The notes under the pieces: generated by a model
The model's database searches: none
Told to the model about the DNA's origin: nothing
The model's input: the letters and a program-made list of their open reading frames with translations, nothing else
In this document: positions 6,832 to 33,064 of the stretch, piece by piece
Position numbering within the stretch: position 1 is the stretch's first letter
Layout of the letters: every line of letters starts with the position of its first letter
NCBI GenBank assembly: GCA_031539225.1
Contig: JAVKLJ010000001.1
Span: 19,791-83,790, forward strand
Source of the DNA: Patescibacteria group bacterium
GTDB taxonomy: Bacteria > Patescibacteriota > Gracilibacteria > BD1-5 > UBA2023
Direction: 5' to 3'
DNA: 64,000 bases
Translations under genes and position numbers: made by a program

Positions 6832-8475
6832 ATGAGGTATTTTTTCTATAATCAGCCCATGCCACAATTTAAAACAAAAAAACTCAAAACAGTCACTCCA
6901 ACAGATAATGAAGGAATAATCCCAGAAAACACAATCATCAAAAAAAGACTCAGATACATCATCGGAGGATTTCTCGTGGTTTTAACTGGGGTTTTTCTCA
7001 TAAACATGGGAATACAAGCTATGAGTAATATTCGTCTTTGAAGTTCTACTGGAGCTATTTTTAAGCCGATTACATTTCCTATATTTTCGACAAAACCAAC
7101 AGATGAAAGTGTGACGAACATCCTCATTGCTGGAATCTGAGGAAAATGACACGAATGAGGAAATCTCACCGACTCACTCATGCTCGCATCGTTTGATGCA
7201 AAAAATAAACAAGTGACACTTCTCTCTCTTCCGAGAGACCTATTTGTAGCATATCCAAATCATACCTGAGCAGGCCGCATCAATACACTCTATGGAATAG
7301 GGAAGGAAAATGGGGAAGGAATAAATCTCCTCGCAAATAAAGTATCAGAAATCACGGGACAACCAATACAACACTATCTCGTTATCGACTTCGGATGATT
7401 TAAAGATCTCGTCGATGCACTTGGTTGAGTTGAGGTAGATGTCCCTCATGATCTCGTCGACCGCGAATATCCAGATGAAAACTGGGGATATACGACTTTT
7501 GTTGTTCGAGCATGAACACAGACATTTGATGGAAATACCGCCCTCAAGTATGCGAGAAGTCGACATTCGACGAGTGACTTTGATAGATCAGAACGACAGC
7601 AAATACTCATAAAAGCAATCAAGAATAAAGCACTGCAACTCGAAATACTCACGAACCCATCAAAAATAAAATCTCTGTATGATACAATATTATCCCATCT
7701 CGATAGCGATCTCACTCTTGGAAATATAGTAGATTTAGGTATCAAATTCCAAGACATACCATCCGATCATATCCATGTATACAATCTCAATAATGAGTGC
7801 TATTGAAGTATTTGTTCTGCATGAGCCTATCTCTATACCCCATCACGAGAATACTTTGGCGGAGCATCAGCTGTGATTCCGGAAAATGCAACAGCACAAA
7901 AACTCAGTGTCTATGATGATATAAAGAGATTTGTAAGTTTCATCTTTACATTTCCAGATATAAGAAATGATCGATATCCGATAAATATCATCACAACAAA
8001 AACAAATGAGAAGCAAGCAAAGAGACTTCTTCTCGAATTTCAAAAAATGTGACTTCAGATGGAGCCAAATAATGCCATACTCTTTACTGGATGACTCGAT
8101 ACTTCCCATATAAATATATATTGGAATATGGATGCTGACATAGGATTCTCTCCTGAAAATCTGATTGTAAAGGCACTGAAATCTATCGAGGAAACAATAC
8201 CATATATCAGTGTTTCACATAATGAGTTTATCACCGATAAATGACCTCGTATAGAAATAGTTCTCGGAAAAGATGCTTCGTCATATTTTTCTTTTGCAAA
8301 AACACCTTTTTATCTCCCACTCATCGAATCTACAGGAAGTAATAGTACAACAGGAAATACTCTTTCATCTGAAGGAAAAGTAAATAAAATAAATACCTCT
8401 ACAAAAACACAAACAAAAACCATCCCCTCAACTACTCCATACACGGTAGCACCTGGGGAATGGGAAAACTTTTAG
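6832..8475 (+). CDS. LytR-CpsA-Psr (LCP) family cell-envelope polymer transferase with a long C-terminal extension
   Basis: I translated the full length and found only TGA interruptions. It has an N-terminal TM helix, NILIAGIGGKGHEGGNLTDSLMLASFD..LLSLPRDL..INTLYG..IQHYLVIDFGGFKDLVDALGGVEVDV and ALKYARSRHSTSDFDRSERQQ. The start could instead be the ATG at 6859. Confidence 0.85.
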
Positions 8476-8495
8476 TTGTTTTACCAATAATAACT

Positions 8496-11400
8496 ATGAG
8501 ACATCTCTCAAAAAAACTCCATGAGATTATTCGTTCAAAAAGAAAAAGAACCAATTTTTCCATGCATCCTCTGAGGAAAATAATTGGAATATGCGTCATG
8601 ATAGGGAGCCTATTACTTTGATGAACTCTTTTGTATTTTTTTCATGGAATGCCATCTATAGAGTCTATGGCAAATGGGAACTTTTTTCGTGAAAGTAGTG
8701 TTATTTATGATAAAGATGGGAATGAAATTTATAGTATTTTCAAAGATGGAAAACGCACATATATTCCCTATGATACAATATCTCAGTCAATAAAAGATGC
8801 TATCATCAGTGCGGAAGATAGGACATTTTTCGAAAATCCAGGAGTAGACTTTCGTGGTCTCCTCAGAGTGGCTGCAACCTATGTCACAGGAAACTATGGA
8901 CGAGTATGATGAGCATCGACGATTTCTCAGCAACTTATCAAAAATACACTCCTTTCAAACGAACGATCAATAAAACGAAAAATTCAAGAAGGATATCTCT
9001 CCTATAGGCTCAATAATAACTACACAAAAGAGAAGATTCTCGAAATGTACCTTAATGCTATATCATTTGGATATAATGCAAATGGTATTGAACAAGCTTC
9101 TCGCACATTTTTCGGGAAGAGTGCAAAAGATGTCTGACCACTCGGAGCAACGATACTTGCTTCTCTTCCAAATGGACCGACAAAATTTTCACCATACCTC
9201 CATCGCGATGTACTTATGGGAAAACTCGATGTCTATCCAACGGGGAATCCTGAAAATACAAAGACACTTATCACAACCGAAGATAAAAAGAATTATGCAT
9301 CCCTTTATACTGGATTTAAATCATACATAGGTTCGTTGACTTTCAATAGATCCGATAAATGACTCAAGGTATGTAATGTTATAAATGCTAATATAAAATG
9401 ATGAGTATTTGAAGCAGATGATACAGGTTGTATCAGTCTCGCATTTAATGATGTTATCAAATTTTTCTCAAATATTACGATAGAAAAAGAAATATCAACA
9501 GAAAATGGGTTACAAAAATATACGATTGAATATACAATCGGAAGAAAAGACTTTGTCGCCTCTCAAATGCTCGAAGATGCAAAAATAGACGGACCAACAT
9601 TTGGAAAAATACTCTCTGATGGTATTGACTTTGAATTTAAAAAATACTCTGAAAATATCAAGTATCCATATTTTGTGATGTATATAAAAGAATATCTGGA
9701 AAATAAATATGGCAAAGATATCGATATCACAAGTGGTCTAAAAATCTATACAACTATTGATCCAAAACTCCAGGAAAAAGCAGAAGAACTCATAAAAAAA
9801 CAAGTTGCCATAAATAAAGTACAGTACTGAGCATCCAGTGCTGCACTCGTGAGTATGGATAATACCTCTGGAAAACTCCTCGCTATGGTGGGTGGTCCGG
9901 ATTATTTTGATATAGAACATGGAGGTAATAATAATATGGCAACGGCACTGAGACAACCTGGGTCATCCTTTAAGCCATTTATCTATTGACTCGCAATTTC
10001 AAAAAATCCAATAGGTCCAGAAAGTCCTATTGCTGATGCAAAAACAGACTTTGGAGAATGGACACCAGACAACTATGATAGAGAATTTTATGGTGTCATG
10101 ATGGTAAAAAACGCTCTAGCATATTCACGAAACATCCCTGCTATCAAAATGTTTTATCTTGCAGGTGGCGAAGATACGATTATAAAATTTGGGAAGAGTC
10201 TCGGACTTGGTACTCTCAAGGAAAATGCTTGATATGGAGCGCCTCTCGCTATAGGAACTGCGGAAGTGAGACCACTTGATATGATGCAAGCATATAGTGT
10301 CTTTGCAAATCTTGGGATAAAAAGAGATTTTTATGCTATAGAGAAAATAGAAGATAGCGATGGAAATATTATTGAGGAAAAAATAGCTTCCGAAAAAGAT
10401 AATACCATCTTCTCACCAGAAGCAAGCTATATAGTCAATAGTATCCTCTCGGATAATAGTGCTCGACCAGAATCCACATTTTGGAGAAATGCGCTCAGTA
10501 TAGGATGAAAAATAGTTGCAGCAAAAACAGGAACTTCGAATAAGGATCTCAGTAAAAATGGAGAGAAGAAAATTCTCCCACGAGATCTCTGGACTATATG
10601 ATATACTCCGGATATCACGACGGTTGTTTGGGCTGGAAATGTCGATGGAAAAGAAACAAAGTGAAATTGTGACGGGCTCAATTGTGCGGCCCCTATTTGG
10701 CGTGGTTTTATGGATTTTGCTCTCAAGGGTAAGGAAAACACCGGATGGAAAAAACCAAGTGGACTCTATACATATAACATAGTGAAATCGAGTGGGAAAC
10801 TCGCCACCTCAGATACTCCTGCGGATCAAATTGTCAGCACACTTATGGCGGTAAAATTTGATAAATACGATGATGGACTCAAGGAAATAGAAGTTGATTC
10901 ACTCTGTAATGGTCCTGTAGCAGAAAATACGCCACCCGAAGCAATAAAAAAAATATACATTCCTGGCTCAAAACCAATCATCGATGGATATGATCCTGCA
11001 TGGACTTCTGGATTTTTTGATGCTATAAATAGTACAAAATGAATGACTGGAACCCTTTCTCAAGTAACGCAATCAAATACGCCATGTGAAAGACCAGGTG
11101 GACCAGGAAATATATCAATTTCTATACAATCTGTATGAGTGAGTAGCGAGAAAATAGGCGGAAAGAAAACTATGGAAGTGACATGGATTGGAGACAGAAA
11201 GATTGCAACTCTGAGAATCTCTTACCAAGATGAGGTCAAAAGAGAAATACAATACGCAACAGGAGCAAACGATAGATGAACTGAAAGAATTGCTATAGAA
11301 AATATAAAAGAAGGTGCTGTTTTGAAGGTAGAGGCAATTGATACATTTGGCTTTAAGTACACGGAATCAAAAACCATCGTACAAGAAAGTACTGTGTCCT

Positions 11401-11729
11401 GAACAGACTCGTCAACAAATACACCAGTAGATACAACAATCATAAATCCTGAGATTATCCTCTCAAATCCGAAAAATGGAAAAATCAGCATTTATCTCGG
11501 AGACGCATTTAATCTCCGATTTCAAACGAAAGTATGAACTGCAAATCGAGAAGTACAAGTCTCTATCGATGATACCACACTCCAAAATGCAAATGCATGA
11601 GAATTTTTCGTCATACCAATATCCTCAACAAATCTCACAGCAGGAAACCATTCAGGAAAAATCACTCTTATAGATGGAAATTTTAAAACAACAACAAAGA
11701 AATTTACCATAACTGTTATCCCTCGTTAA
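8496..11729 (+). CDS. Class A penicillin-binding protein (glycosyltransferase GT51 + transpeptidase) with a C-terminal extension
   Basis: GT51 motifs [29 protein letters not shown] and RKIQE. Transpeptidase motifs QPGSSFKP and AAKTGTSN. Fragments 8631, 9567, 10266 and 10710 are all in frame with the ATG at 8496. The tail 11040-11729 was translated and is open. Confidence 0.9.
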
Positions 11730-11730
11730 T

Positions 11731-12408
11731 ATGCACTATAAAAATGTCACTCTCTCATATGGTGAAAGAACTATTCTTCGAGATGTTTCTTTTACTATTG
11801 CACCAGGAGAATTTGTATTTCTCATAGGAGCCTCTGGAAGTGGGAAAACAAGTCTTATTCGTTCAATTATATGATATATATGAGTAAAGCATGGTCATAT
11901 ATACGATGATAGAGAACGCGATATATCTCTTTTGTCTCCAAAAGAACTCATAGCATATAGACGCAATATCGGCATTATCTTTCAAGATTTTAAACTTCTC
12001 CCAAAAAAAACTGTACGGGAAAATGTGGCATTTGCACTCGAAGTAAGTGGATATGGAAAAGATATTATTGGAAAAAGAGTTCCTGAGGTACTCTCTCAAG
12101 TATGACTCCTTTCAAAAAAAGATAAATTTATAGAAACTCTCTCTGGTGGAGAAATACAGAGAGTTTGTATTGCTCGAGCACTCATACACTCCCCTGCTAT
12201 CATCATTGGTGATGAACCAACAGGAAACCTCGACCGAAAAAATGCCGATGAAATTATTATGCTTCTCGAAAAACTCAATCAAGAGGGAAAAACTATCATT
12301 ATGTCTACACATGATGAGTATATAGTAAATACGCTCAAAAAAAGAGTCATCGCTTTTCAGGATGGGAAAATTATCTCTGATACGATAGGAGGAACTTATT
12401 GTCTCTAG
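11731..12408 (+). CDS. ftsE: Cell-division ABC transporter ATP-binding protein FtsE
   Basis: Walker [10 protein letters not shown], signature LSGGEIQR, Walker [13 protein letters not shown]. About 225 aa, FtsE-like in length and sequence. Starts 1 nt after the PBP stop. Confidence 0.8.
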
Positions 12409-12435: not shown

Positions 12436-13929
12436 ATGCTCCACGAAGAAAGTCTCGGAAAAAAATTTGTGAATCGAGGTTTTTGGCTCTATGCCTTTAC
12501 CTTTTTGATATGACCCCTTGGTTATATTACAAAAATGATTATATCACGAGATCTCAGCGTAAGTGAGGTATGAGTTATTTATGGTGTTATCAGTTTTGTA
12601 ACCCTGATATCTACCTATAATGACCTTGGCTGCACAGAAAGTCTCAACTACTTTCTTCCAAAACATATCATCAATAAAACATACGGAAAAGCAAAATACC
12701 TCCTGGGGCTCACCCTCAAAATCCAGACAATTACCAGTATATTCCTCTGTTTGACACTATTTTTTATAGCACCATGGCTTGCTCGAGTATATTTCTGAAA
12801 TACTGAAATAGTAACAATACTGAGAATTTCATGACTCTATTTTATTGGTGTGAATATTTTTCATATTGTTGGAATACTCTTCTCGATTGCACAGGATACG
12901 AAACTCCAGAAGTGAGTGGAACTCGTGCGGATTTTATCTGTTACTATAGCTGTAAGTATACTCTATTTTTCAGAAAGTGGTAACACAGAACGATATATGT
13001 GGGCATGGGTAGCTGGACTTTTTATTGCCATTCTCTTTGCAATTTATTGGGCATATAACAAATATTATAAAACATATTTCTCTGGTATAGAATCTATTTT
13101 AGATACGGAAGAAAGGAAGGCATTTTTTAAGTACTCTTTTGCAACACTTCTAACGAGCAATATCTGAATGGTGCTCTCACAAGTAGATATGCAGATGATT
13201 ATCTACATTCTCTGAGCTGAGGCAACGGGATATTATTCAAATTACCTTTCACTCATGAATATCCCATTCATGTTTATTAGTCCTATTATAGCCTTTCTCT
13301 TCCCCGTGATATCTGAGCTCAATTCGAGAAATGATACTATAAAAATGCGTATGCTTTGTGGAAGATTTACACTCTACTTCAGTATAATTGGAATATGGAT
13401 ATCTGTTTTTATGTTTCAGATGTGAGAAGATCTTGCATCCATATTCTTTTCTGAAAAATTTAGAATGTCAGGAATCATTCTTGCTTACTCATCACTCTTT
13501 CTCTGTTTCAATCTTCTTATACAAGTAAATTTTCAGTTTCTTGCAGGAACATGACAGATACAATCTCGCGCGAGAATACTCATGACGATACTTCCTATAA
13601 ATATCATTCTCAATTATATATTCATCCACCTTTACGGTGTTGCTGGTTCTGCTCTTGCTGTCGGGCTCTCTTGGATACCGCTCTGGTATCTCTCATATAG
13701 AGCAACGCGAGAATATCATGAAGCAATCCCCATTCTTGATATCCTAAAAAATATCATCCTAGCACTCTGTGCGTACGGTATTATTTACTTTTGAAGTTCT
13801 TTTCTTTATATCAGCAATACGATTCTCTTACTTTGCTTTGCAGTTTTGATAAATTTGCTTATATTTCTCCCTGGAAATCTCAAAATAATTCAAGAATTTA
13901 TCTGAATTATCAAAGAAAGTAGAAAATAA
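12436..13929 (+). CDS. MOP-superfamily polysaccharide/lipid-linked oligosaccharide flippase (Wzx/MurJ-like)
   Basis: About 497 aa and multi-TM throughout. Fragments 12916 and 13582 are in frame with the ATG at 12436. The sequence is a typical polysaccharide-biosynthesis protein (..LLTSNIGMVLSQVDMQMI..GYYSNYLSL..). Confidence 0.7.
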
Positions 13930-13947: not shown

Positions 13948-16900
13948 ATGCTCCAACTCATACTTGCTGGAATAGGCTTTGCCCTATGGGCACTCCATAC
14001 TATACTTACCTATTATTCAACTTCGTATAGCCCTATCAATCATATAGAACAAACGACGGGATATGGGGCATATCTCGTTTCTCTCGTTGTAGTATATCTT
14101 CTCTATAAGGGGCATTCTATTTTTATAGCCAAAAAAAAGGAAGTCGTATTTCATTTTTGGAATATACTCGGATTTATTGTTCTCCAAATTGCCGTACTAT
14201 CAATTGCATTTAGTGCAAACACTCCAACACTGATGGGATGAATCTCTCCATCAAGTATGGTGTTATTTTTTCATATACTCGGATTTTCGATATATCCGCT
14301 CATTCTCCTACTCCTTTGGAGAGTAGTGTGATATACAATACTTCAATGCGCATTCAAGAATTGGTCATCACAGTTTTTGAGACTCCGAGTTCCAGCAGAG
14401 ATAGCAATAGGAATTCTTGTGTTCACGACAGGACTCATTTGACTTTGAGAATTTTGACTCTATACCACGACAGGACTCATTTGACTTCTGATTGTTCTCG
14501 GGACTATAGGATGGAATGGATGGAAAGAAACATATAAAAATATCTTCGAATCGAAGATCATATTTCCAGCACACTCAAAAGAAAGTGGACTCATAGAACT
14601 CATCAATCCAAGACTCTTGTCAGCTGAATTTGCTTTTATGATGCTGAGCTTTCTTGTGTGAGTTTCACTCATTAGTATAATACGACCGATGCCTATAGGA
14701 TGGGATGATCTCTGAGTATATATGAACTTCCCAAAAATGATGGCACTTTCAGGAAATCTTCTTGAATGAGCTGGTATGTATACATGGCAACTCATTACTG
14801 GAACTGGATTTTTATTCTCAAATATATACGGTTCAACAAATCTCGCAACGCAAGCATTTTATGTTAATCAACTCGGATGAATCCTTGCAATAATTTCGAT
14901 TATATGTGGGCTCTCTCTTTTATTTGAATCAAAAGAAAGAAAATATTTACTCGCACTTCCGATTATTTTTGCACTCGTATTTTATGCTATGCCGATGAAT
15001 ATATTTCAGCAAGCAAAAGATATGAAACTTGATCCTGCTCTCCTCTGAGTGAGTATAGCATGACTTTCAATACTGATTTCTGGATGGAAAAAAGAGTACT
15101 CACAAAAGGAATCAATTCCATTTATTCTCATTGCATGAGTCATTATATGACTCGCATTTACTGTGAAATTCACTACTCTCATGCTCATACTTTGAGCATT
15201 ATGACTTATCGCATATAGGAGTCTCTCTTTATGTGGATTTATGTCATTCTTTTTTCTCTTTCTTGGTATATTTACAAAGCTTGGGCTTTGGACACAGCTC
15301 AATGTATGGATGCCTTCTGATCCAGCTCTTCTAGGTACAGTATCATTTTCACTCCTTGCTCTTGGAGGTATATTTTGATGAATTGGTATATGGAAACATG
15401 GTATGAGCAAATGAAAAACATGGATATATACAAGCCTCGTATTCCTCATCGGAGTAGTCATAGGACTCACTCCATGGATCATAAAAAATACAGCTGAGAT
15501 GCAACCATGGAGTGCCTATAAAACCATCGGTATGAAAGCATCGGTGATGAACTCAATACTCAGTGGATCTGGAGGTTCATATATTCCAGACTATACAAAA
15601 ATTTACTCAACAAAGGAATACGAAGATAGACAGAAAAAACTCTCCGATGTATGAATCACTGGAAGTGGACAATCCCAAAACGAAGACATGGGAAGATATT
15701 TTGGATACGATAAATGAATCAATAACTACCTAAAACTTCCCGCAAATCTCACATTCCAGAAAAATCAAGCTGGTGAATTTACGGATATTACTTATATTTT
15801 TCTTGCATTTATCCCAGCAATCTTCCTGTTTGCTCGATGAAGAAAATATATATTTCCAGTTTTTGTAGGTATAATAATGCTATTTCTTTACTTCTACTAT
15901 TTTCATGAAGCAACAAGAATATTCTTTGGAAATATTTTCAATATAGAAAATCTTCTTGTATGATATGCTGTTCTTTGATGTATAAATATTGCTTGGGTGC
16001 TTCTTGTATTTTTCGGACTTTCAGACAAACACGAGGAAAATGAAAAAATCAAAGAAATTTCTATACTCCTAGCAGTCTATGGTTTTCTCTTCCTCATAAG
16101 TGCATTCGGAATTGTATGGTATGGTATAGTCGTATACTATCTTTTCTTTATTCTCATAGGACTTGCTGGAAGTAGTTTTCTGAGCTATACAGATAAAGAA
16201 CATAAAGATGAAAACCACTTCAGCGTACAAGTCACTATTGCTCTCGTATTTGCAATATTTATTCTTGTATATTTTCTCCGTTCAGCATTCCCACATGGTT
16301 GGAATAACCTCAAAGAGTCATCTGGATATGGAGAATTCAAATATGGACTCCTCTCCCAAGAGGAAGCAATATTCGGGTATAGACAAGACTATACAACTTC
16401 GATTGCTTCGATGAATATTAGTCACACTGATAAGCTTATAGAAAAAGCCAAAAATGAAGCAAAAACAGAAAAACTCAAAACACTTTTTGCATCTGAAAAG
16501 CTTCAATGAATATCTATACATGATTTTATATCTCTTCTGTTTTCTCTCGGAACAACAAAAGATATAGCAATAAGAAATGATGCAAAAAATGTTGCAAACT
16601 TTACTTATAAATCTATCCTCTACCCAAAAACATATGCTCCAGAATTGGTAAATACAGGTGGGATTTATCGTATTGGAACATTTATGACATATTTAATCAA
16701 TGAAAATAGAAAACGATATCTTGATGATAGTCTCATATTTTCATTCGATACATTTTTCTACGATACAAATCCAGATGTGACTGTAGAAAGAATGAAAAAA
16801 CTCGGGCTCAAATATCTCCTCGTAGATCTCAATGCAGCAACGATAGATAAAGATCCTCGCCATGTTCTCACAGATAGGTTTGAAAAACTTCTCAAAACTA

Positions 16901-17268
16901 TGCGATCTGAAAAACTCACACTCGTTGATACTGATAGTATCTGTCTCAGACTCGCAATAGATGAATCGAAAAGGTGACTCCTGAAAACAGATGATGAATT
17001 TATAAATCTTGGTGGAACAAACTACGAAAGTTACCGAAACCAGAGTGGTACACTCATGCAAATGGGGCGATGACAAAAACAAGCTTATTGTTTTAATTAT
17101 ATCCTCAAAAAAATTGCTACAGAAAATCCTGATACTCTTTATGAATATCTCATTCCAATTCGTGAGGCTATAAAAAATTCTTGAGCAGATACAGACGAAA
17201 AAAAGCTCCAACAAATATTTAGTCAGTATATCTGACAAAGTTGGTTCACTCTCTTCGAGATACAATAA
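13948..17268 (+). CDS. 1106-aa polytopic membrane protein with a C-terminal soluble domain; possible GT-C-fold glycosyltransferase
   Basis: Fragments 13948, 15997 and 16645 are in one frame. I translated 14239-16000 codon by codon: it has many TGAs and no TAA/TAG. It has over 15 hydrophobic segments. A loop motif RPMPIGWDDLGVYMNFP resembles the acidic first-loop motif of GT-C enzymes. The CDS call is firm; the function call is weak. Confidence 0.8.
14424..14487 (+). repeat. In-frame 22-nt direct repeat (two copies 42 nt apart) inside the membrane protein
   Basis: cacgacaggactcatttgactt occurs at 14424-14445 and again at 14466-14487. Each copy encodes TTGLIGL, with the second Gly as TGA. Confidence 0.9.
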
Positions 17269-17271
17269 ATA

Positions 17272-17300
17272 GAAAAACTCCCATATTATGGGAGTTTTTC
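17272..17300. terminator. Bidirectional hairpin shared by the convergent membrane-protein gene and murD
   Basis: gaaaaactccca-tatta-tgggagtttttc. It starts 4 nt after the TAA at 17266-17268 and overlaps the last murD codons. Confidence 0.6.
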
Positions 17301-18587
17301 TATAGCATCTCGGAACTGATGTGCTCGATCGAGATAATCGCGAAAGAGTCAAAATGATGCACAACCAGGTGAAAGCATGAGAATATCACCAAATTTCTTT
17401 TTCTCATAAAGCCAACCCACTCATTCATCGAGAGAATCAGTCGCAACATAGGGGATGTTTTCTTGTTTTGCAATTTGGATAAATTTTTCCTTTGTAGCAC
17501 CTATACATACCATTGCCTTGACTCGATTATGAAACTTTTTTGCAAGATGAAGAAATGAATCACCCTTATCAGAACCACCAACTATCAATAAGAGATTTTT
17601 CGTATTTCCATATGCTCCGAGAGCCGCTTCTAAACTCTGGCTTGATGTAGATTTTGAATCCTCTACAAAGATGACTCCATTTTTTTCTCAAACCTTTTCG
17701 AGCCTATGAGGAAGTCCATAGATTTCAGCTATATACTTCTTTACTCGTTTTGAGCATATTTTCATTTCATTTGCAATGATACCTACAGAGAGGAGATTCA
17801 TGGCATTATGAAATCCAGAAAAATGGGTTTCAGAAAGTTTATATTTTTTCCTGCCAGAAATCACGATATTTTCGCCATCTGTCTTATCTTTCCCTTCTCA
17901 CTGAAATATACGAATATTCTCTGGAATTTTGATTTTTAGAGAATTTTCACGAGTAAAGTCGAGAATTTGATTATTGAGAACTGCTCTTTTTTTTGTATGC
18001 AATAAGAGATTCATCTTTGCATCAAGATATTCCTGAAGATCTCTATGCCAGTTGAGATGATCAGATTTAAAATTTGTAAATAGCGAAAAATCAGACATAA
18101 ATTCACGAAGCATGTATGACATAAAACTCGAAATTTCTATAACAATATATCATTTTTTCTCTCATTTTTTGAGAATATCGAGAACTGTCGCTGAAAATGG
18201 AATATCAAAATTCCCTGAAAGATAGACTGGGAAATTTTTTCCATTTTTTGTTACGGTTTTGTTACAATTTTCTTTGACAGAATACTCCTTATGTAGTATA
18301 TTATACATCATCCAACTCGTTGTAGATTTACCATCAGTTCCGGTAATGGATATAATTCTAAAAGATTTAGGCAAAAATCTATATGCAAAATCAAGCTCTG
18401 AAAGGATTTTCCCAGTTTGATAAATCGGATGAGTTCCTGGAACTCATGGCGAAGGGATGATGTACTCGTAGACATCGTATGATAGAGGTGCCCTAGTATC
18501 ATCAACCATCTGATATGAAATATTTTGGTATTCACACAGGCTTGCGAGAGCATTACCCACCTTACCACTTCAGTAAATTAAAATCAT
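17286..18587 (-). CDS. murD: UDP-N-acetylmuramoylalanine--D-glutamate ligase MurD
   Basis: ISITGTDGKSTTS, TNFKSDHLNWH, HRLEKV, VEDSKSTS and LSPGCASFGLF..RAHQF. Fragments 17898-18122 and 18162-18374 are in frame with the ATG at 18587. TAA stop at 17286. Confidence 0.88.
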
Positions 18588-18644
18588 ATGTTTAGTATAA
18601 GAAAAAAACATAAAGTACAAATCCTAAATGAGAAAGATGGTTTT

Positions 18645-20369
18645 ATGTCGTGAGTTGCAGAAATACACACCAGTGATATAGACGCTCTGAGAAAAGAAAG
18701 TCATATAACGAGAATGCAATTAAGTATTCCGAAAACTATTGAATCCATAATCAATCTGACACCACAAGAAGAAATAGAAGAACAAATTCGCCTACATTTT
18801 CCTAATCGATGAGCAACAAAAAAACTTCATAGTTTTTTAATGAAGCATCGATATGTATTTACAGACCTCATACGAGTCATGCATAGATACCGAAAGAATG
18901 ACTCGATAAAATGATGGCACATTGATGATAATAATATTCCAAAAATACAACAAATATTCCTTTTTCGTGGACGCGAAGAAGATTTATGAGAAGAAATAGC
19001 ATCTTTTATAGAACTCATAACAACAAACTCGGATTTCATAGAGTTTACATCAAAACAAGATTCGATATTTGATATAGGTTCTTATGACTTTTCTCTATGA
19101 ATGAGAAACCATGATAATCAATTTGATATAAAAAAAGCGAAGAAAAATATCCGAAAGCTCATCATTACAGGAATGATAGGCAATATTCAATGATGCACTG
19201 AAGCAAATCTTGAACATCACTTTTGATTGATGAAAGATAAGATTTTTAAGTATATTAATGAAATTTATTGAGTGTATCTTAGCGATATAGAATGGGTAAC
19301 AACTCTGGAACAACTCACATGCGAACTTGCCAAACTCTTTGAAACAGGAAAAGGAAACAATAGAAAAAGGGCATGGAGAATGGTACAAGCATTTCATTGG
19401 TGAGATATTGTAGATATAGAATATCGTTACAGTAAAACCAAAGAACGCCTTTCTGATGTTGCTGAAAAACTCAATAAAAATGGGATAAACATAAATATGA
19501 ATGAATTATCTCACTCAACAAATGTACAGTGAGTAGAAATATGGTCAGCACCATGGGAATTTAAAGGAAAAATAATAATTGTGTCATGGAGAGCAAAAAC
19601 CCCAAAAAGCATGATAAAAAAACTCAGCTGAACAGAAGAGTATGTACGAACAACTTCTATTCGAGATGAGTTATGAATTTCATTTACTTACGATGATAAT
19701 ACGCCTTCGGAAGATATAGTAGAAATAATGAAATTATGATCAAATATGCTCGCGGATCATGGGTATATACTCAAAAACAAATGAGAAATCAATGATGATA
19801 AAATATTTCAGGAATTAATGGAAAATTCACCGAAAAAACCGCTTTTCTCAAATCAAGAACCATGATGAAATCCAAATATGCAAAATGCAAGTCAAAGTGG
19901 ATTTATGAGTATATGACGAGGGAGAAAAAAAGAAGCAATCGGATGTGAAATACAGTATAGTAAAAAATGATGAATGGATTGGAAAAAGAAAGAAGATATT
20001 ATATATAAACTCAAGGAAGCCATCAAGGCATGAATGAGATGAGCAGAACAAGCATCACCAAAAGAAATATTCGATGAATTTACACGAGAAATTCATAGAA
20101 ATGAACTCATAAATATATGTAATCCTGATACTGGTAAAAGTCTTTGAATATCAAGTTACAATGAGCTCATGAAGTATTTTATAGAAAAAAATTTTATCAT
20201 TCCTCATTTTTGAGTTTATAATGAGAAAACTATACTCCTATTTACAACAGGAACATATATGCTGACTTTTGAGAGAAAATGGAATATGCGACCACTAATA
20301 AAATCTATAAATAAGGAAGAATACGATAAAATGATTGCTGTTATAGATTGATTAACAGAAACTCATTAA
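18645..20369 (+). CDS. Hypothetical 574-aa protein with a central RelA/SpoT-like (alarmone-synthetase-fold) motif set; invisible under the standard code
   Basis: Continuous frame from the ATG at 18645 to the TAA at 20367, with about 24 TGA codons and no other stop. The ORF track shows no plus-strand ORF here. Motifs occur in the order WRAKTPKSMIKKL .. SIRDELGISF .. SQSGFMSIG .. AIGCEIQY, matching the RSH synthetase blocks R.K...S...KL / D..G.R / GY.S.H / E.Q. Confidence 0.7.
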
Positions 20370-21061
20370 TAAAAATCTTTCCTTTTCATCCACTCACCAA
20401 ACTTTCTCGCAGCCTCAACTCCTGGATCAATTAGATCTGGGAGTTTTTTATTTCTTTTAATATAATATTTTTCTATAGAGTTCCGAATAAGTGGATAATG
20501 CGTACACCCGAGAACAAGCGCTTCAATATCAGAAGAAAAATGACTGAGATACACATCAAGTAAGCCATCTATCTGATCTCACTCTACAATCCCCTGCTCA
20601 ATCAAAGGAACGAGTCAAGGGGCAGAGATTTCTTCGACCGAGACAGAATCATCGAGAATATGCACTCGTTCCTTGTACATACGAGTTCTCACAGTTGCCT
20701 CTGTGGCGAGTACACCAATCTTTTTATATCACCCTTCGACGACAGCTTCCGCACCAGGAACTGTCACTCAGAGAATATGTCTTCAGGAATATACTTCTTG
20801 CTGAAGCCACCTGAGTGCATGGACACTTGCAGTATTACAGGCAAGTATGATGACATCTGCTCATCTCTCAAAAAGTCTTTCTACTCAAGCTTTTGTCAGT
20901 CTTCGTATCTCATCTTGTGTCTTATCTCCATATGGTGCATTTTCTCTATCCATTTCGAGGATCATATCTATATTAGGAAAGTATGACTGAAAAACCTCCA
21001 TAACGAGTTTTCATCAAAGTCACGAATCAAAAAATCAGATACACAGATTAGATTTTTGCAT
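20366..21061 (-). CDS. murI: Glutamate racemase MurI
   Basis: IGFFDSGLGG (three of these Gly are TGA), ILACNTAS and VLGCTHYPL. 231 aa. Its stop overlaps the stop of the convergent 18645-20369 gene within TTAA. Confidence 0.92.
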
Positions 21062-21090
21062 AAAAAAAATCGGGGATTATGTCCCCGATT
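21062..21090 (-). terminator. Rho-independent terminator after secD
   Basis: aatcgggga-ttatg-tccccgatt. On the minus strand the stem is followed by a run of 8 U. Confidence 0.6.
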
Positions 21091-21115
21091 GTATGAAACT
21101 TTGATTCTTTTACAA

Positions 21116-22813
21116 TTATTTCTTATATCCGATAAATGCGAAAGTTTTATGATGCATTTTCTTCGCTGTCACCTCGATAAGGACTCGACTCACCCACATA
21201 GCAGTAAAAAGTGAGAGGACGATACCGAGACCGAGCATAAGACCGAATCATTTAATGAGAGATATACCGAATATATAGAGAATAGCAGCCGATGTCAATG
21301 AAGTAATATGAGAATCCCAAATTGCTGTCCATGATTTTTCAAAACCAATATGTGTTGCTTTTTCGAGAGGATGTCCTTCACGGAGTGCTTCACGCATTCT
21401 CTCGAATATGAGGATATTTGCATCGATGGCAAGACCGATCGAGAGGATGATACCAGCGATAGAAGCAAGTGTGAGAACAGGACCAAAAAGTTTTACAAGG
21501 GCAACAAGGATCAGTGTATAAATCACGAGAGCCACTCCAGCGAGAAGTCAACTTATATGATAGAAATAAGTCAGAAACGCTATAATGAGACCGAGACCAA
21601 TGAGACCTGCGAGAAGAATCTCTGAAAGTGCATGAGAACCAATTTTAGCATCAATCGTTCGTTCACTTGTGAGGTATATAGGAGCAGGAACAATACCAGT
21701 ATTGATATCATTTGCGAGTTTTTGTGCTGATTGTACAGTATAGTCACCAGTGATGACAGCTCGACCATCAGGTATAACTGCTTGAACTGTAGGAGCTGTG
21801 AGCATCTGTCCACCGACAAATATAGCAATCTGCTTCCCTATCAGTCTTTTTGTGAGTTCAGCAAATATCTTTTTTCCTTCCTCATTGAATGTGAGTTCTA
21901 CTTGAGGTTGTCCTCATTGAGTAAAGCCAACCCCAGCACTCACGAGGTATTTATCACCGAGAACTTTTCCATCCTTTGTTTTTGCTTGAGTCCATGAACT
22001 TGCTCGTTCATCTATGAATATGTATGAATATGAATAATTTCCTGTTCCTGTTTTTGAATTAATTTCTACAAGAGCATATCCAGTATTACTCTTGATAGTA
22101 GGATTTCCATCCTGATCCATACTGTATTCTATATTTCCTTGAGTGATAAGTATCGGTGAATGGTATGGGAATTTTTCTACTTTTTCAATTCCAGGAAATG
22201 TAGCTTCTGGAGGAAGACTTCCAGTTCATGATGCAAAGACAACATTTTCATATTGATCACGATATTTTTGTCCTATCGTTGCAAATGGTGTTGTACTCAT
22301 CTCATTCCAAGCCTTATTTGCGAGTTCTTTTCTTTCTTCTCTATCAGAGTCAGTAATATTTGTCTTTGCTTCGCGAAACTCGAGTTGTACAACTTTTCCG
22401 ATAGTTGCTTTTGCTTTTTCAGTATCCTCCGCACTTTTCTTTCTCTTTTCGCTTTCAGAAACATTTCCATAGTCACGAGTAGGAATCTGGACAATGATAT
22501 GAGATTCATCACCATATTTTGCTGTCTGAATTGTTGGTTCCGCGAGACCAAGAGAGTTTACGCGTTTATCGATAACTGACTTGATTCCTTCGATGATATT
22601 TTGTTCACTCCAAGTTGCAGTACCAGTCTGTGATTTGAGTGTTTCAAAATCAACCTTATAATCGAGCTCTACACCTCATTGAAGATCAAGTCCGAGAGTA
22701 TACGGCTTAGCAAGAAATGGTATATCGATACCAAATTTTTCCCATGGTGTAATATATGCAAGCGATAAAACTACGAGAAAAATAACAAAGAAAAATCTAT
22801 GTGAAAGTTTCAT
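21116..22813 (-). CDS. secD: Protein translocase subunit SecD (no adjacent SecF)
   Basis: Fragments 21248-21535, 21548-21805 and 21914-22120 are in frame with the ATG at 22813. It has an N-terminal TM helix, a large periplasmic domain (GGQMLTAPTVQAVI..GRAVITG) and a C-terminal 6-TM block (SIGLAIDANILIFERMREAL). ORF 21248 continues through TGA to the TAA at 21116. Confidence 0.85.
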
Positions 22814-23049
22814 AATTCGAATGGAGTGAGAGAAATAAGAAGAGTGAAACGAATTTTTATTTTCGAACGGAATGCAGAATTTCCCAAAGGATAATTCAAA
22901 TGAAATGAGAGAATAAAAAGATTGTTTGGGCAGATTATAGAAAAAGATAACAATTTTGCAAGGAGACTTTTTGCAAAGAAAAGAAAAATATGTTAGACTC
23001 AGTAAGTATTACAAAATTCAGTATTCTCTATTTTTCTAATTTTCATCAT

Positions 23050-23685
23050 ATGTCACTCGTCGAACAAGCAAAAGAATTTGTCTTCCCACTCCTCGAAAAA
23101 TCATGTGGAGACTATCCATATCACAATCCAAACCATACACAACTCGTCTATAATCGAGCGAGCTATCTCGGGCTCGCAGAGAATGTAAATAGTGAAGACC
23201 TCGAAGATCTCCAGATTGCATGTATTTTTCATGATACTGGCTTCACAGAACAATATGAAAAAAATGAATTTATCGGGGCTCGCATCGCGCGCAAATGGCT
23301 TGAAGAAAAAAACCATCCAAAAGAACGAATCGAAAAAATCGAATGAATCATCATGGCGACAGTACTTTTTTCAAAGCCAAAAAATCTCCTCGAAGAAATC
23401 ATCCAAGATGCTGATCTCGATAATATCGGGACAAAGGAAGAATTTTATTACTCGCTCGATTATCTCGATGAAATCCGCAGAATCGGAAAAATAGAAATGC
23501 CAGATTGCTCATATTGGCAATTCGTCTATACGCTCCTCACGAAATACAAGTTTCACACTCCGACAGCCAAAAAAGAACGCCATGCTCAGCAGCTCCTCGA
23601 TGTAGATCATATGGAAAAATTTCTCAATATGATGAACTGTGAAGTCCCATCTCACGAAGTACATCGTATGTCGAGTGTGCAATAA
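23050..23685 (+). CDS. HD-domain metal-dependent phosphohydrolase
   Basis: YHNPNHTQLV...ACIFHDTGF...QDADLDNIG is an H..HD..D pattern. Fragments 22990 and 23353 are in frame and joined by one TGA. Start taken at MSLVEQAKE (an upstream TTG at 22990 is possible). Confidence 0.75.
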
Positions 23686-24995: not shown

Positions 24996-25007
24996 CCTTT
25001 AATAACC

Positions 25008-26648
25008 ATGTCAAAACAAATTCACTTCGGAGACGAAGCTCGTCTCAAGATGTTCTCCGGTATGGAGAAAGTCGCAAAAACAGTAACGGCTACTATGGGA
25101 CCAAAAGGTCGCAATGTGATATTCGCTAAATCCTACGGCGCGCCTCAGGTAACCAACGATGGTGTCACTATAGCAAAAGAAATCGAACTCGAAGATAAAA
25201 TCGAGAATATGGGTGCGGAGCTCATAAAAGAAGCTGCGAGCCGTACAAACGATGCTGCCGGTGATGGAACAACTACTGCCACTCTCCTCACCTATGCAAT
25301 GGTGAAAGAATGACTCCGTGAAATCCGCTCTGGAATCAACGCAATAGAGCTCAAAAATGGTATGAAAAAAGCAGGCTCTCTCGTCGTAGATGAACTCGCT
25401 CGTATGAGTCAAACCCTGGGTACTCAGGAAGAAATAGAGCAAGTCGCAACGATATCAGCTCAAGATGCTGAAGTTGGACAGATTATCGCATCTGCCATGG
25501 AGAAGGTCGGAAAAGATGGCGTTATCACTGTCGAAGAAGGTCGTACATTTGGACTCGAAGTCGAAGTCACAGAAGGTATGAAATTCGATAATGGATATAT
25601 CTCTCCGTATATGATCACTGATGGAGAGAAGATGGAATGACGAATCTCCGATGCGCATATCCTCATCACAGACAAAAAAATCTCATCGCTCAAGGATATC
25701 CTCGGCGTCCTCGAATCTCTGGCACAATCAGGAAGAAGAGAACTCGTCATCATCGCAGATGATATCGACGGAGAAGCACTCACAGGTATCATCCTCAACA
25801 AACTCAAATGAGTCCTCACAGTTCTCGGTATCAAAGCTCCAGGATTTGGCGACAAGAAAAAAGAAATGCTCAAGGATCTCGCTATCCTCACAGGTGCAAC
25901 TCTCATCACAGAAGAAACTGGATACAAGCTCGAAAACGCATCTATCGAACATCTCGGTCATGCGAAGGCAGTCGTATCAACAAAAGATAGCACGACCATC
26001 ATCTCTGGTGGTGGAGACAAGCATCTCATCAATACACGAGTAAATGAACTCCGTAATCAAATAGAAGCAACAAAGAGTGACTACGATAAGGAAAAACTCG
26101 CTGAACGCATCGCAAAACTCGCAGGTGGAATCGCAGTTATCAAAGTAGGTGCTGCAAGTGAAGTAGAAATGAAAGAAAAGAAACTCCGCATAGAAGATGC
26201 ACTGAATGCAACCAAGGCTGCAGTCGATGAGGGTATCGTTGCTGGTGGTGGAGTAGCACTCCTCAAGGCTGCAAAAGTACTCGAAAAAGTGAACCTCACA
26301 AAAGAGGAAAAAGTCTGAGCTGATATCGTCGCTCGTGCACTTACCTACCCTGTTCGTCAAATCGCTGACAATGCAGGAAAAGAAGGTGCAGTCGTAGTAA
26401 ATGAAGTTGCTTCAAGCGCTGATGCGAACTACGGATATGATGCTGCTCGAGATGAATATAAAGACCTCGTAAAAGCTGGTATCATCGACCCAACAAAAGT
26501 TGCTCGTTCTGCTCTCCAAAATGCTGTCTCTATCGCTGGAATGTTCCTCACGACAGAGGCTCTCATCGTGGATGCTCCGAAAAAAGAAGAAGCACCTGCA
26601 ATGCCTCCTGGAGGTATGGGTGGTATGGGGTGAATGGGAATGTATTAG
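25008..26648 (+). CDS. groEL: Chaperonin GroEL
   Basis: Full-length GroEL (546 aa): [26 protein letters not shown] and a C-terminal GGMGGMGGMGMY. Five in-frame TGAs, all at Gly positions. TAG stop. Confidence 0.97.
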
Positions 26649-26660
26649 AAGCAAGAAATA

Positions 26661-26689
26661 AAAAAACACCGAATATTCGGTGTTTTTTT
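26661..26689. terminator. Bidirectional terminator between groEL and the convergent cNMP-binding gene
   Basis: aaaaaacaccgaa-tat-ttcggtgtttttt: a 13-bp stem with symmetric A and T tracts. Confidence 0.75.
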
Positions 26690-31717: not shown

Positions 31718-31807
31718 ACATCAAGTGAAGGATTTTATTTGCAACTCGATACTATTTTTATAGAATACCCAAAATTTTTCGACTCACCCACTTATCAAAT
31801 CTTCTTT

Positions 31808-33064
31808 ATGCTCAAGCTTTCTTGACCCCAAGACCTCAACTGAATCGTCGCCATATCTGGTTCAAAAAATGCTGCTCTTCCCCTCATTGCATGTGGGCTC
31901 TTTTTTGAGAAATTTACACTTCATAATGTACCAAGAATCGGTGATGTACTCACCTTTCTTTCCATCATAGAATCTCTTTGAGTAAAAGTAATCTTTGAAA
32001 AAAACACACTCACACTTGAAACGAGCAAAATGAATCTAGAGAGTATAAATATGGAGGCAATCAAGAAAATTCGTGTATGAATTTTTCTTTTTCCAGCCCT
32101 TCTCAAGAGATTTCGAAGTCTCGAAATACCATACCCTGGTGGATGTAATATAGGAAAAAGACCGATAGATGAACATATGCGAGCTTTTGAGGCATTTGGA
32201 TATAAAAATGATTGAGGAGATGATTTGCTCAAATTTTCATGAAACTATACAACAGAAGATGTACGCATTTCTGCTGGATTTGCAGTTACTGCGACAGAGA
32301 ACATACTCATGATAGCAGCATTTCGTACAGGAAAAACAACGATAGAACTCGCAGCTATAGAACCTCATGTTATCTGCCTGATAGATTTTCTCAAATCACT
32401 CTGAATCGAAATCACTCTCTCCCATGACCATACTATAGTCGTCAATGGAATCAAGCATGCTCCAAAAGAAGCAAGTGCAACCGTCATACATGACTATATA
32501 GAAAGTGGGACATTTGTAGTGCTCTGAGCACTGACAGCAAATCCCATGATTGAGATAAAAAATGCCAGAATAGCAGACCTCACTTTTTTCCTCGGGAAAT
32601 GTCGAGAAGCATGAGTCCGCTTTGATCTCGATGAGGGAAATGACACTATAAAAGTGTATAATTCTCGTTCAAATCTGAAAGCCGTAAATTTTCAGACCAA
32701 TATCTATCCTGGATTTCCAACCGATCTTCAGTCCCCTTTTTCACTCCTCCTCACACAAGCAGAGTGAATATCGAGAATTCACGAAGTTCTTTTTGAAGGA
32801 AGACTTAATTGGCTCGTAGAAATAGAAAAAATGAAATGACATATTGCTATCATGAATCCACATGAAGCTATGGTATTTGGAAAAACACACCTCCGAGGTG
32901 CGACAGTATCAAGTTGGGATCTGAGAGCCTGAGTAACGATGATACTCGCTGGGATGATTGCACGATGAGAGACACTCATCACCAATGTCGAATACATCGA
33001 ACGAGGATATGAGGATATCGTAGGGAAAATAGCGAAACTTGGTGGAAAAATCGAAACTATCTAA
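31808..33064 (+). CDS. murA: UDP-N-acetylglucosamine 1-carboxyvinyltransferase MurA
   Basis: [52 protein letters not shown] and [18 protein letters not shown]. 418 codons with about 14 TGAs, none producing a fragment of 60 aa or more in the ORF track. Confidence 0.9.

Follow-up and report, generated by a model that had tools for sequence, protein, structure and literature searches.

RelA/SpoT homologue (RSH) enzymes are central stress-signalling enzymes of bacteria. A census based on hidden Markov models (HMMs) divided them into 54 subfamilies, namely 30 small alarmone synthetases (SAS), 11 small alarmone hydrolases and 13 long RSHs; lineages of the Candidate Phyla Radiation (CPR) are not mentioned in its main text (PMC7229694). 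Here we describe a gene, from now on called the target, at positions 18588-20369 (plus strand) of a 64,000-nucleotide stretch of Gracilibacteria DNA (the window; all positions refer to it unless a related locus is named). With TGA read as glycine (genetic code 25) the target encodes a protein of 593 amino acids. Its central domain is, very probably, a genuine homologue of the RSH synthetase domain, albeit a very remote one, and we consider it probable, at roughly 60%, that the protein is an active, Mg2+-dependent and ATP-dependent pyrophosphokinase of the RSH type, although a highly divergent one. This activity, as well as the type of acceptor and a link to the cell wall, is what we infer from the conserved residues and the conserved position of the gene.

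In structure, the central domain is most similar to the SAS enzymes RelP and RelQ (SAS1/SAS2; PDB 6ewz, 6ex0, 6fgx, 5ded, 5dec). The order of the secondary-structure elements and of the five synthetase motifs is the same, and the target keeps the ATP-binding R/K/S/K residues, both carboxylates and the Gly-aromatic pair. The differences are also obvious: SAS crystal chains have about 180-200 residues, whereas the target has 593, with unrelated N- and C-terminal domains; the target has an insertion of about 40 amino acids between motifs 2 and 3; of the canonical residues, it has lost R in DxxGxR, both S and H in GYxSxH, and RT in ExQxRT; it scores below the gathering threshold of PF04607; and it has so far been seen only in TGA-recoded, Gracilibacteria-type lineages, between murD and murI. 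RelP and RelQ of Staphylococcus aureus are described as mediating the ability to tolerate stress on the cell envelope (Geiger et al. 2014, as cited in PMC6793942).

The long RSHs (Rel, RelA, SpoT) resemble the target in being multi-domain proteins with a synthetase domain that follows an all-helical N-terminal region, and the motifs of the target are collinear with those of Escherichia coli RelA. However, the N-terminus of the target is unlike an HD or pseudo-HD domain and its C-terminus unlike a TGS domain, it is about 150 residues shorter than the 744-residue E. coli RelA, and no long RSH was returned by Foldseek for either of two target models. The toxic SAS enzymes (toxSAS: FaRel, FaRel2, PhRel, CapRel) and the (pp)pApp synthetase Tas1 belong to the same superfamily and, as described in PMC7229694, show that the RSH fold can use adenine nucleotides and the 3'-CCA terminus of tRNAs. 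Their size and architecture are very different from those of the target, which occupies a housekeeping syntenic site with neither a toxin-antitoxin nor a secretion-effector context and no match in PADLOC.

Homology of the central domain to RSH synthetases

The features of the target gene are listed below; residue numbers are those of the 593-residue protein, and conservation was counted in a 40-sequence alignment of about 14-50% identity.

18588-20369, plus strand: target coding sequence under code 25, 593 amino acids and a TAA stop, 24 TGA codons
18588-19490, plus strand: N-terminal all-helical region, residues 1-301 (secondary structure of the AlphaFold2 model; no recognisable family)
19491-20048, plus strand: RSH synthetase-like alpha/beta domain, residues 302-487 (hhalign, Foldseek, sub-threshold PF04607)
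19563-20009, plus strand: core supported by profile-profile alignment, residues 326-474 (hhalign)
19587-19625, plus strand: motif 1, WRAKTPKSMIKKL, corresponding to RxKxxxSxxxK (R335, K337, S341 and K345 in 40/40)
19656-19685, plus strand: motif 2, SIRDELGISF, corresponding to DxxGxR (D360 in 40/40, R359 and G363 in 38/40)
19761-19877, plus strand: insertion specific to the family, about 40 residues long, separating motif 2 from motif 3, GYILKNKGE ... KKPLF (gap in the hhalign alignment with RSH)
19884-19916, plus strand: motif 3, NASQSGFMSIG, corresponding to GYxSxH (G438 in 40/40, aromatic 439 in 39/40, S and H unconserved)
19935-19967, plus strand: motif 4, AIGCEIQYSKK, corresponding to ExQxRT (G452 and E454 in 40/40, Q456 in 39/40, RT unconserved)
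19980-20015, plus strand: motif 5, WKKKEDIIYKLK, corresponding to HxxYK (position 470 is D in 23/40 and H in 17/40)
20049-20366, plus strand: C-terminal alpha/beta region, residues 488-593 (AlphaFold2 model; no recognisable family)

The core of the 40-sequence family alignment was compared by hhalign with a diverse RSH profile, which consisted of seven SAS sequences (RelQ-like and RelP-like), three long Rel sequences and RelA-type sequences; the SAS and long-Rel domains had been taken from host-contaminated 'phage' records. The two profiles aligned over 109 columns with a probability of 77% (E = 2.1e-5, score 39.8), with all five synthetase motifs collinear. In comparison, 60 column-shuffled controls scored 12.6 +/- 1.9 (maximum 17.9) and the reversed profile scored 13.5, which places the alignment at a z of about 14. 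An HMM of the same diverse RSH set was then run against all code-25 open reading frames (ORFs) of 242 kb of Gracilibacteria DNA: family members occupied ranks 1 to 8, with the best E-value for the member of locus L013 (4.3e-6) and a value of 2.3e-4 for the member of locus L014, which reads RVKSIESIL...DLLGIRMY (L numbers denote related loci). No canonical RSH gene was found in these 242 kb with the RSH HMM.

Separate Pfam scans of 39 full-length members, with matches counted at E up to 0.1, identified PF04607 (RelA_SpoT) in 14 of them (best E = 3.7e-5), always at profile positions 1-55, while no other family recurred in more than two of the 39. Two members that are correctly translated in the database matched PF04607 with E = 1.5e-4 and 9e-4.

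An AlphaFold2 model built from a 39-sequence alignment had a predicted local distance difference test score (pLDDT) of 89.8 and a predicted TM-score (pTM) of 0.87. When this model was compared with the PDB by Foldseek, ranks 1-21 were all SAS enzymes (RelP, RelQ, 2be3, 3l9d), with probabilities up to 0.99 and TM-scores, normalised to the target, of 0.38-0.49. A less confident AlphaFold model from eight sequences gave nearly the same list, with SAS enzymes as almost all of the top matches, and in the viral structure library BFVD a phage RelA/SpoT protein was found at rank 3. Structural support for an RSH fold is thus consistent but moderate.

The initial annotation had read the middle of the protein as RSH-like on the basis of four peptide blocks. 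All four are present and coincide with family-invariant positions, and the reading is borne out, by sensitive methods only: the hhalign comparison, the ranking by the RSH HMM, the sub-threshold PF04607 matches in 14 of the 39 members (the window protein itself has none) and the Foldseek lists of both models, with RelP and RelQ as nearly all top matches. An absence of significant profile or structural similarity to the nucleotidyltransferase/RSH fold had been named as refuting this reading; the comparisons instead show such similarity.

Active site and proposed reaction

In the structures of Rel, RelP and RelQ, the synthetase motifs serve in binding of the ATP phosphates, coordination of Mg2+, stacking of the acceptor base and catalysis of the transfer. 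The positions invariant in all 40 family sequences are R335, K337, S341, K345, Y352, D360, G438, G452 and E454; R359 and G363 are present in 38 sequences, and Q456 as well as an aromatic residue at position 439 (F or Y) in 39. Motif 1 (WRAKTPKSMIKKL) aligns with GRPKHIYSIWRKM of RelA. Most members have S or A in place of the trailing R of DxxGxR; the L014 protein keeps the R (DLLGIRM). In motif 5, Y473 is found in 29 and K474 in 23 of the 40 sequences, and position 470 is D in the window. The insertion between motifs 2 and 3 has near-invariant residues of its own (K396, K398, G399 in 34/40, and P418) and forms extra strands and a helix in the model. Three of the conserved glycines are encoded by TGA in the window: G363 of the DxxG motif, G399 and G485 (37/40).

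The strict retention of the catalytic motif residues argues for an active enzyme, and pyrophosphokinase activity is the most likely one because every residue class used in RSH catalysis has been kept. In such an enzyme, the helix R335-x-K337-x3-S341-x3-K345 would hold the phosphates of ATP, D360 (of RDxxG) and E454 (of GxExQ) would be the two Mg2+-binding, catalytic carboxylates, and the Gly-aromatic pair G438-F439 would stack on the base of the acceptor. ATP would donate its beta,gamma-pyrophosphate to the 3'-OH of a nucleotide-type acceptor, yielding a product that resembles (p)ppGpp or (pp)pApp. That the product is (p)ppGpp itself is possible but doubtful. The motif losses and the insertion fall on the acceptor side, and the acceptor may therefore not be GDP or GTP.

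Flanking domains

The N-terminal (about 300 residues) and C-terminal (about 105 residues) domains are confidently modelled and conserved throughout the family. Conserved blocks are HxxVFxDLIRVxH, IQQIFLFR and RKRAWxxxQAFHW in the N-terminal region and ASPKEIFDxxTRE and LLFTT in the C-terminal region. Neither region has a match in Pfam, NCBIfam or among the PDB sequences, and Foldseek returned only weak, PadR-like matches to the C-terminal region (probability 0.41 or less). We considered whether the N-terminal region is a degenerate HD domain and rejected this: hhalign of family residues 1-300 against the HD domain of RSH gave a score of 15.5, which is noise level, and the region has no match to PF13328 or PF01966 and no invariant His or Asp. 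A TGS domain at the C-terminus was rejected likewise (hhalign of residues 485-593 against TGS scored 11.8, also noise level, with no Pfam match). The initial annotation could name no family for either end of the protein, and the Pfam, PDB-sequence and hhalign comparisons agree with this.

With no similarity to HD or TGS domains, large extra domains and a length of 593 amino acids, the protein belongs neither to the long RSHs nor to the single-domain SAS enzymes. It is best described as a putative cytoplasmic three-domain protein, so far seen only in lineages that read TGA as glycine, in which the helical N-terminal and the alpha/beta C-terminal domain would serve as regulatory or targeting modules.

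Genetic code, reading frame and spread of the family

The genetic code of the window is code 25 (TGA = Gly) and not code 4, because glycine is enriched opposite the TGA codons and tryptophan never found there: in the aligned DNA of seven orthologues, glycine stands opposite TGA in 27.6% of cases, in comparison to 3% background. Within the target gene, TGA accounts for 24 of the 39 glycine codons (62%). The same picture is seen across the whole window, where long frames are broken only by TGA and recognisable genes emerge only when TGA is read through; ORF calls with the standard bacterial code (table 11) are fragmentary over the entire window 1-64000, including the genes for GroEL, SecD and MurD.

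The initial annotation described a hidden gene of 574 codons, starting at 18645, in a region where the table-11 ORF track has nothing on the plus strand and three ORFs on the minus strand. The latter agrees with our listing: between 18645 and 20369 the plus strand has no ORF of at least 60 amino acids and the minus strand exactly three (antisense ORFs at 18827-19039, 19095-19397 and 19848-20051). The frame is indeed uninterrupted when TGA is read as glycine, with 24 TGA, no TAG and one, terminal, TAA from 18645 onwards; in the target gene as a whole, there is one TAA or TAG codon in frame and 37 and 27 in the two other plus-strand frames. The length had to be corrected, since the frame is open back to an ATG at 18588 and many homologues begin with a conserved counterpart of the 19 additional residues (MFSIRKKHKVQ...); the start is thus most likely at 18588, giving 593 amino acids. 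The gene is hidden under table 11 only: the family is already in public protein databases, where the sole annotation of its members in any source is 'hypothetical protein'. These database entries were translated with TGA as tryptophan, which inflated the tryptophan content to 3-6%, and for this reason the window's own entry (P0001) is only '96% identical' to the glycine translation of the target.

ORF length by itself was rejected as evidence for a gene. With only two stop codons, the crude chance estimate for one such open frame in the window is about 0.05, and long spurious antisense ORFs do occur: the frames at 20660-22768 (plus strand) and 24999-26669 (minus strand) have 702 and 556 amino acids, are rich in Cys, Ser and Phe, belong to no family and lie opposite the genes for SecD and GroEL, respectively. 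Homologues and purifying selection, rather than length, argue that the target is a real gene. A word-indexed search found seven full-length homologues with 41-48% identity and one more that covers 69% of the query. When 1.84 billion cluster representatives were searched exhaustively with a family profile in HMMER, 94 relatives were returned, nearly all of about 530-620 amino acids or fragments; full-length divergent homologues number about 40. A search for genome loci with the 8-sequence family alignment returned 2 loci. The ratio of nonsynonymous to synonymous substitution rates (dN/dS; Nei-Gojobori, TGA as Gly) was 0.11-0.31 in all orthologue pairs with computable dS, after exclusion of four pairs as too saturated, and 0.20-0.22 in the two least saturated pairs. 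These values are far from the ratio near 1 that the initial annotation had named as refuting its proposal.

The family appears confined to code-25 lineages, because a tryptophan content of 3-6%, the signature of TGA recoding, is found in the database translations of all members but two. Wherever a source names an organism for a relative, it is Candidatus Gracilibacteria. One member, P0025 (L013, 1089-2747), has no in-frame TGA and the same translation under table 11; on the same contig, the ORF calls for the neighbouring Mur ligase and Cpn10 genes are fragmentary, as though TGA codons broke them up.

Genomic context

The target lies between the genes for two enzymes of peptidoglycan precursor synthesis, in a block of cell-envelope genes. 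Its neighbours in the window are:

6832-8475: LCP (LytR-CpsA-Psr) protein, start of the envelope cluster upstream of the target
8460-11729: class-A penicillin-binding protein (PBP1), envelope cluster
11731-12408: ATP-binding cassette ATPase, FtsE-like, envelope cluster
12436-13929: Wzx-like flippase, envelope cluster
13948-17268, plus strand: polytopic membrane protein of 1106 amino acids, no Pfam match
17286-18587, minus strand: murD (TIGR01087, 272 bits, cut-off 212)
20366-21061, minus strand: murI, glutamate racemase (TIGR00067, 153 bits, cut-off 147)
21116-22813, minus strand: secD, after murI
22990-23685, plus strand: HD protein, after secD (PF01966, 27.6 bits)
25008-26648: GroEL, with GroES just upstream in related loci
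31739-33064: MurA-type enolpyruvyl transferase, about 11 kb downstream of the target

Both direct neighbours pass the NCBIfam equivalog cut-offs, which supports the position between murD and murI that had been proposed from the sequence. The start codons of murD (complement 18585-18587) and of the target (18588) abut without a spacer, forming CATATG at 18585-18590; the same abutment is found in L003 (6665/6666) and L009 (1322/1323). The target and murI are convergent and their stop codons overlap in TTAA (20366-20369), and L001 (9734-9737) and L003 have the same overlap of four nucleotides. Since the start codons of murD and the target abut, the promoter of each gene must lie inside the coding sequence of the other, which implies that their 5' ends necessarily overlap in antisense. 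Being encoded on the strand opposite to murD and murI, the target is not co-transcribed with them. A hairpin of 12 bp followed by a T-run at 20417-20445 (plus strand), 48 nucleotides past the target stop and within the 3' end of murI, is a weak candidate terminator; the terminator scan was at chance level (1 site, 0.9 expected), and so was the promoter scan.

The arrangement murD (minus), target (plus), murI (minus) is kept in the window and in L001, L003, L006, L007, L009, L011 and L016, and also in L008, where the outer flanks are different. In L004, L005, L012 and L017, murI is replaced by murL and a gene for a murD-like ligase, and the target stays adjacent; in L013 and L014 the gene order is rearranged, with a Mur ligase still next to the target. 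The most marginal relative (P0092 in L015) is away from mur genes. The murL gene (PF26299/PF26298) and the gene for the MurD-like ligase are at 9866-12529 in L004, 9727-12390 in L005 and 7730-10346 in L017. MurL belongs to an alternative route of L-Glu ligation and epimerisation that is described as restricted to Xanthomonas, Xylella and Stenotrophomonas-like genera (PMC8788868); its presence in CPR bacteria would widen the known distribution of this route.

Locus L014 has the gene order membrane protein, target-family member, convergent murD. Its family member (P0065, 1505-3229) is only about 17% identical to the target, while the adjoining MurD and membrane protein are 71% and 48% identical to those of the window, a pattern that points to very rapid evolution or to replacement by a paralogue. 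P0065 also looks more canonically RSH-like (DLLGIRM). The 1106-residue membrane protein is syntenic, between a flippase-like gene and murD, and is 47-49% identical in L011, L014 and L017.

The initial annotation also pointed to an HD phosphohydrolase gene 2.7 kb away. An ORF for an HD protein does exist at 22990-23685, and every long locus has kept it behind secD; nothing supports the functional link to the target that had been raised as speculation. The nearest solved relative of this protein is the uncharacterised Lin1889 (3b57, E = 4e-6), and a role as small alarmone hydrolase partner was rejected, as the protein matches only the generic PF01966 and 3b57, not HD_4, and has no HDxxED motif by eye.

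The conserved position between murD and murI or murL in an envelope block suggests that the output of the enzyme would be tied to the synthesis of peptidoglycan precursors. A functional coupling of the target to the D-Glu step is suggestive only, because much of this adjacency is synteny of the whole block.

Alternative explanations

Several results weigh against an active enzyme of the RSH type, and some of them would fit a coincidental resemblance, or a generic nucleotidyltransferase-like alpha/beta fold in an unrelated family. The recoded window protein has no match in Pfam (E up to 1), NCBIfam or PADLOC and is below every curated threshold; among the PDB sequences it has one match, at chance level (E = 1.8), and family profile HMMs of 8 and 39 sequences found only chance-level matches to Sin3 PAH domains there. 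No family member reaches the 27-bit gathering threshold of PF04607, the scores seen being 13.6-22.5 bits. A RelA-only profile, which is too narrow, gave hhalign E-values of just 0.04-0.11, and hmmsearch with a RelA-only HMM found nothing. The Foldseek E-values are 0.01-1, none of them below 1e-3, with TM-scores of about 0.5 or lower, and both models were built from database translations with Trp at TGA/Gly positions, so that local geometry may be distorted. On the side of function, the canonical positions named above have been lost, the window has D for the H of HxxYK, and the insertion splits the synthetase domain, so that substrate or chemistry could differ from those of known RSHs. Finally, much of the synteny comprises the whole block from PBP1 to GroEL, and the adjacency to murD and murI may simply be lineage-wide gene order. 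Against mere coincidence, four independent lines (PF04607, the RSH HMM, hhalign at z of about 14 and Foldseek) agree on both the family and the register, and the order RxKxxxSxxxK ... D ... G-aromatic ... ExQ ... YK is specific to RSH and matches the family-invariant columns. Hhalign, the shuffled controls and the ranking by the RSH HMM thus largely refute the coincidence, which we consider improbable.

Loss of several canonical motif positions, the large insertion and the embedding in a large protein with partner domains of no known family would also be expected if the RSH-like domain were kept as a nucleotide-binding sensor or scaffold, comparable to the inactive hydrolase domain of RelA. 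Pseudo-enzymes typically lose catalytic and ATP-binding residues; however, these are exactly the residues that are invariant across about 40 sequences of 14-25% identity, with both carboxylates and the R, K, S and K, and a pseudo-enzyme is accordingly unlikely, if a little less so than coincidence. A toxSAS-type toxin or defence effector, which would for example pyrophosphorylate the CCA ends of tRNAs, had been offered as an alternative in the initial annotation; it would fit the RSH fold and the preference of Foldseek for SAS-type enzymes over long RSHs. A toxSAS typically has about 200-400 amino acids. The target has 593 amino acids and three domains, whereas toxSAS proteins are single-domain SAS enzymes (PMC7229694). 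No small antitoxin-like gene overlaps the target as its partner in a bicistron; with a few exceptions among the loci examined, it is flanked by murD and by either murI or murL, which are encoded on the other strand. The gene is part of a conserved core syntenic block with housekeeping neighbours across the lineage, PADLOC returned no match and the target is under steady purifying selection. We thus regard a toxin as very improbable. A further alternative is an acceptor from peptidoglycan synthesis. RSH-type chemistry could act on the 3'-OH of the uridine ribose of UDP-MurNAc-L-Ala or UDP-MurNAc-dipeptide, or the protein could directly gate the D-Glu step (MurD/MurI or MurL/MurD2). The link to a Mur ligase is kept in three different gene orders and in members with as little as about 17% identity, including the loci where murL and a murD-like ligase replace murI; the base-side and acceptor-side motifs have diverged (GYxSxH to SG[FY], loss of RT), a family-specific insertion with invariant Lys residues is next to the active site, and RSH enzymes are known to take non-guanine substrates, described as ATP or ADP for Tas1 and FaRel and as the CCA terminus of tRNA for FaRel2 and CapRel (PMC7229694; bioRxiv 10.1101/2021.04.30.441581). 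However, the target is not co-transcribed with murD and murI, from which it is separated by strand, block-wide synteny could explain the adjacency, and P0092, the most marginal relative, is not near mur genes. This specific proposal is unlikely, though somewhat less so than a pseudo-enzyme, and the more general reading as an active RSH-type pyrophosphokinase with a nucleotide-type acceptor is preferred.

Significance

The superfamily and the likely chemistry of the target are already known; new are its architecture, the periphery of its active site, its lineage and its genomic association. A literature search found no paper that links Gracilibacteria or CPR bacteria to ppGpp, the stringent response, RSH or toxSAS. 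The family would have escaped an HMM-based census, because it scores below threshold and each gene contains 15-24 'stops' under the standard code. It also illustrates cleanly that glycines critical for function can be written as TGA, here the G of DxxG, G399 and G485.

The target combines an RSH core with a large insertion and novel helical and alpha/beta domains around it, in Gracilibacteria-type CPR bacteria, the physiology of which is almost unknown, and its association in the genome with the D-glutamate step in the making of peptidoglycan precursors is conserved. Should a precursor acceptor or gating of the D-Glu step prove true, this would be a new class of 'alarmone-type' modification that controls the flux of cell-wall precursors in ultra-small, recoded CPR bacteria. 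If the protein is an active pyrophosphokinase, it would show how these reduced, probably episymbiotic bacteria carry out alarmone-type signalling, and it could reveal a new acceptor for RSH chemistry.

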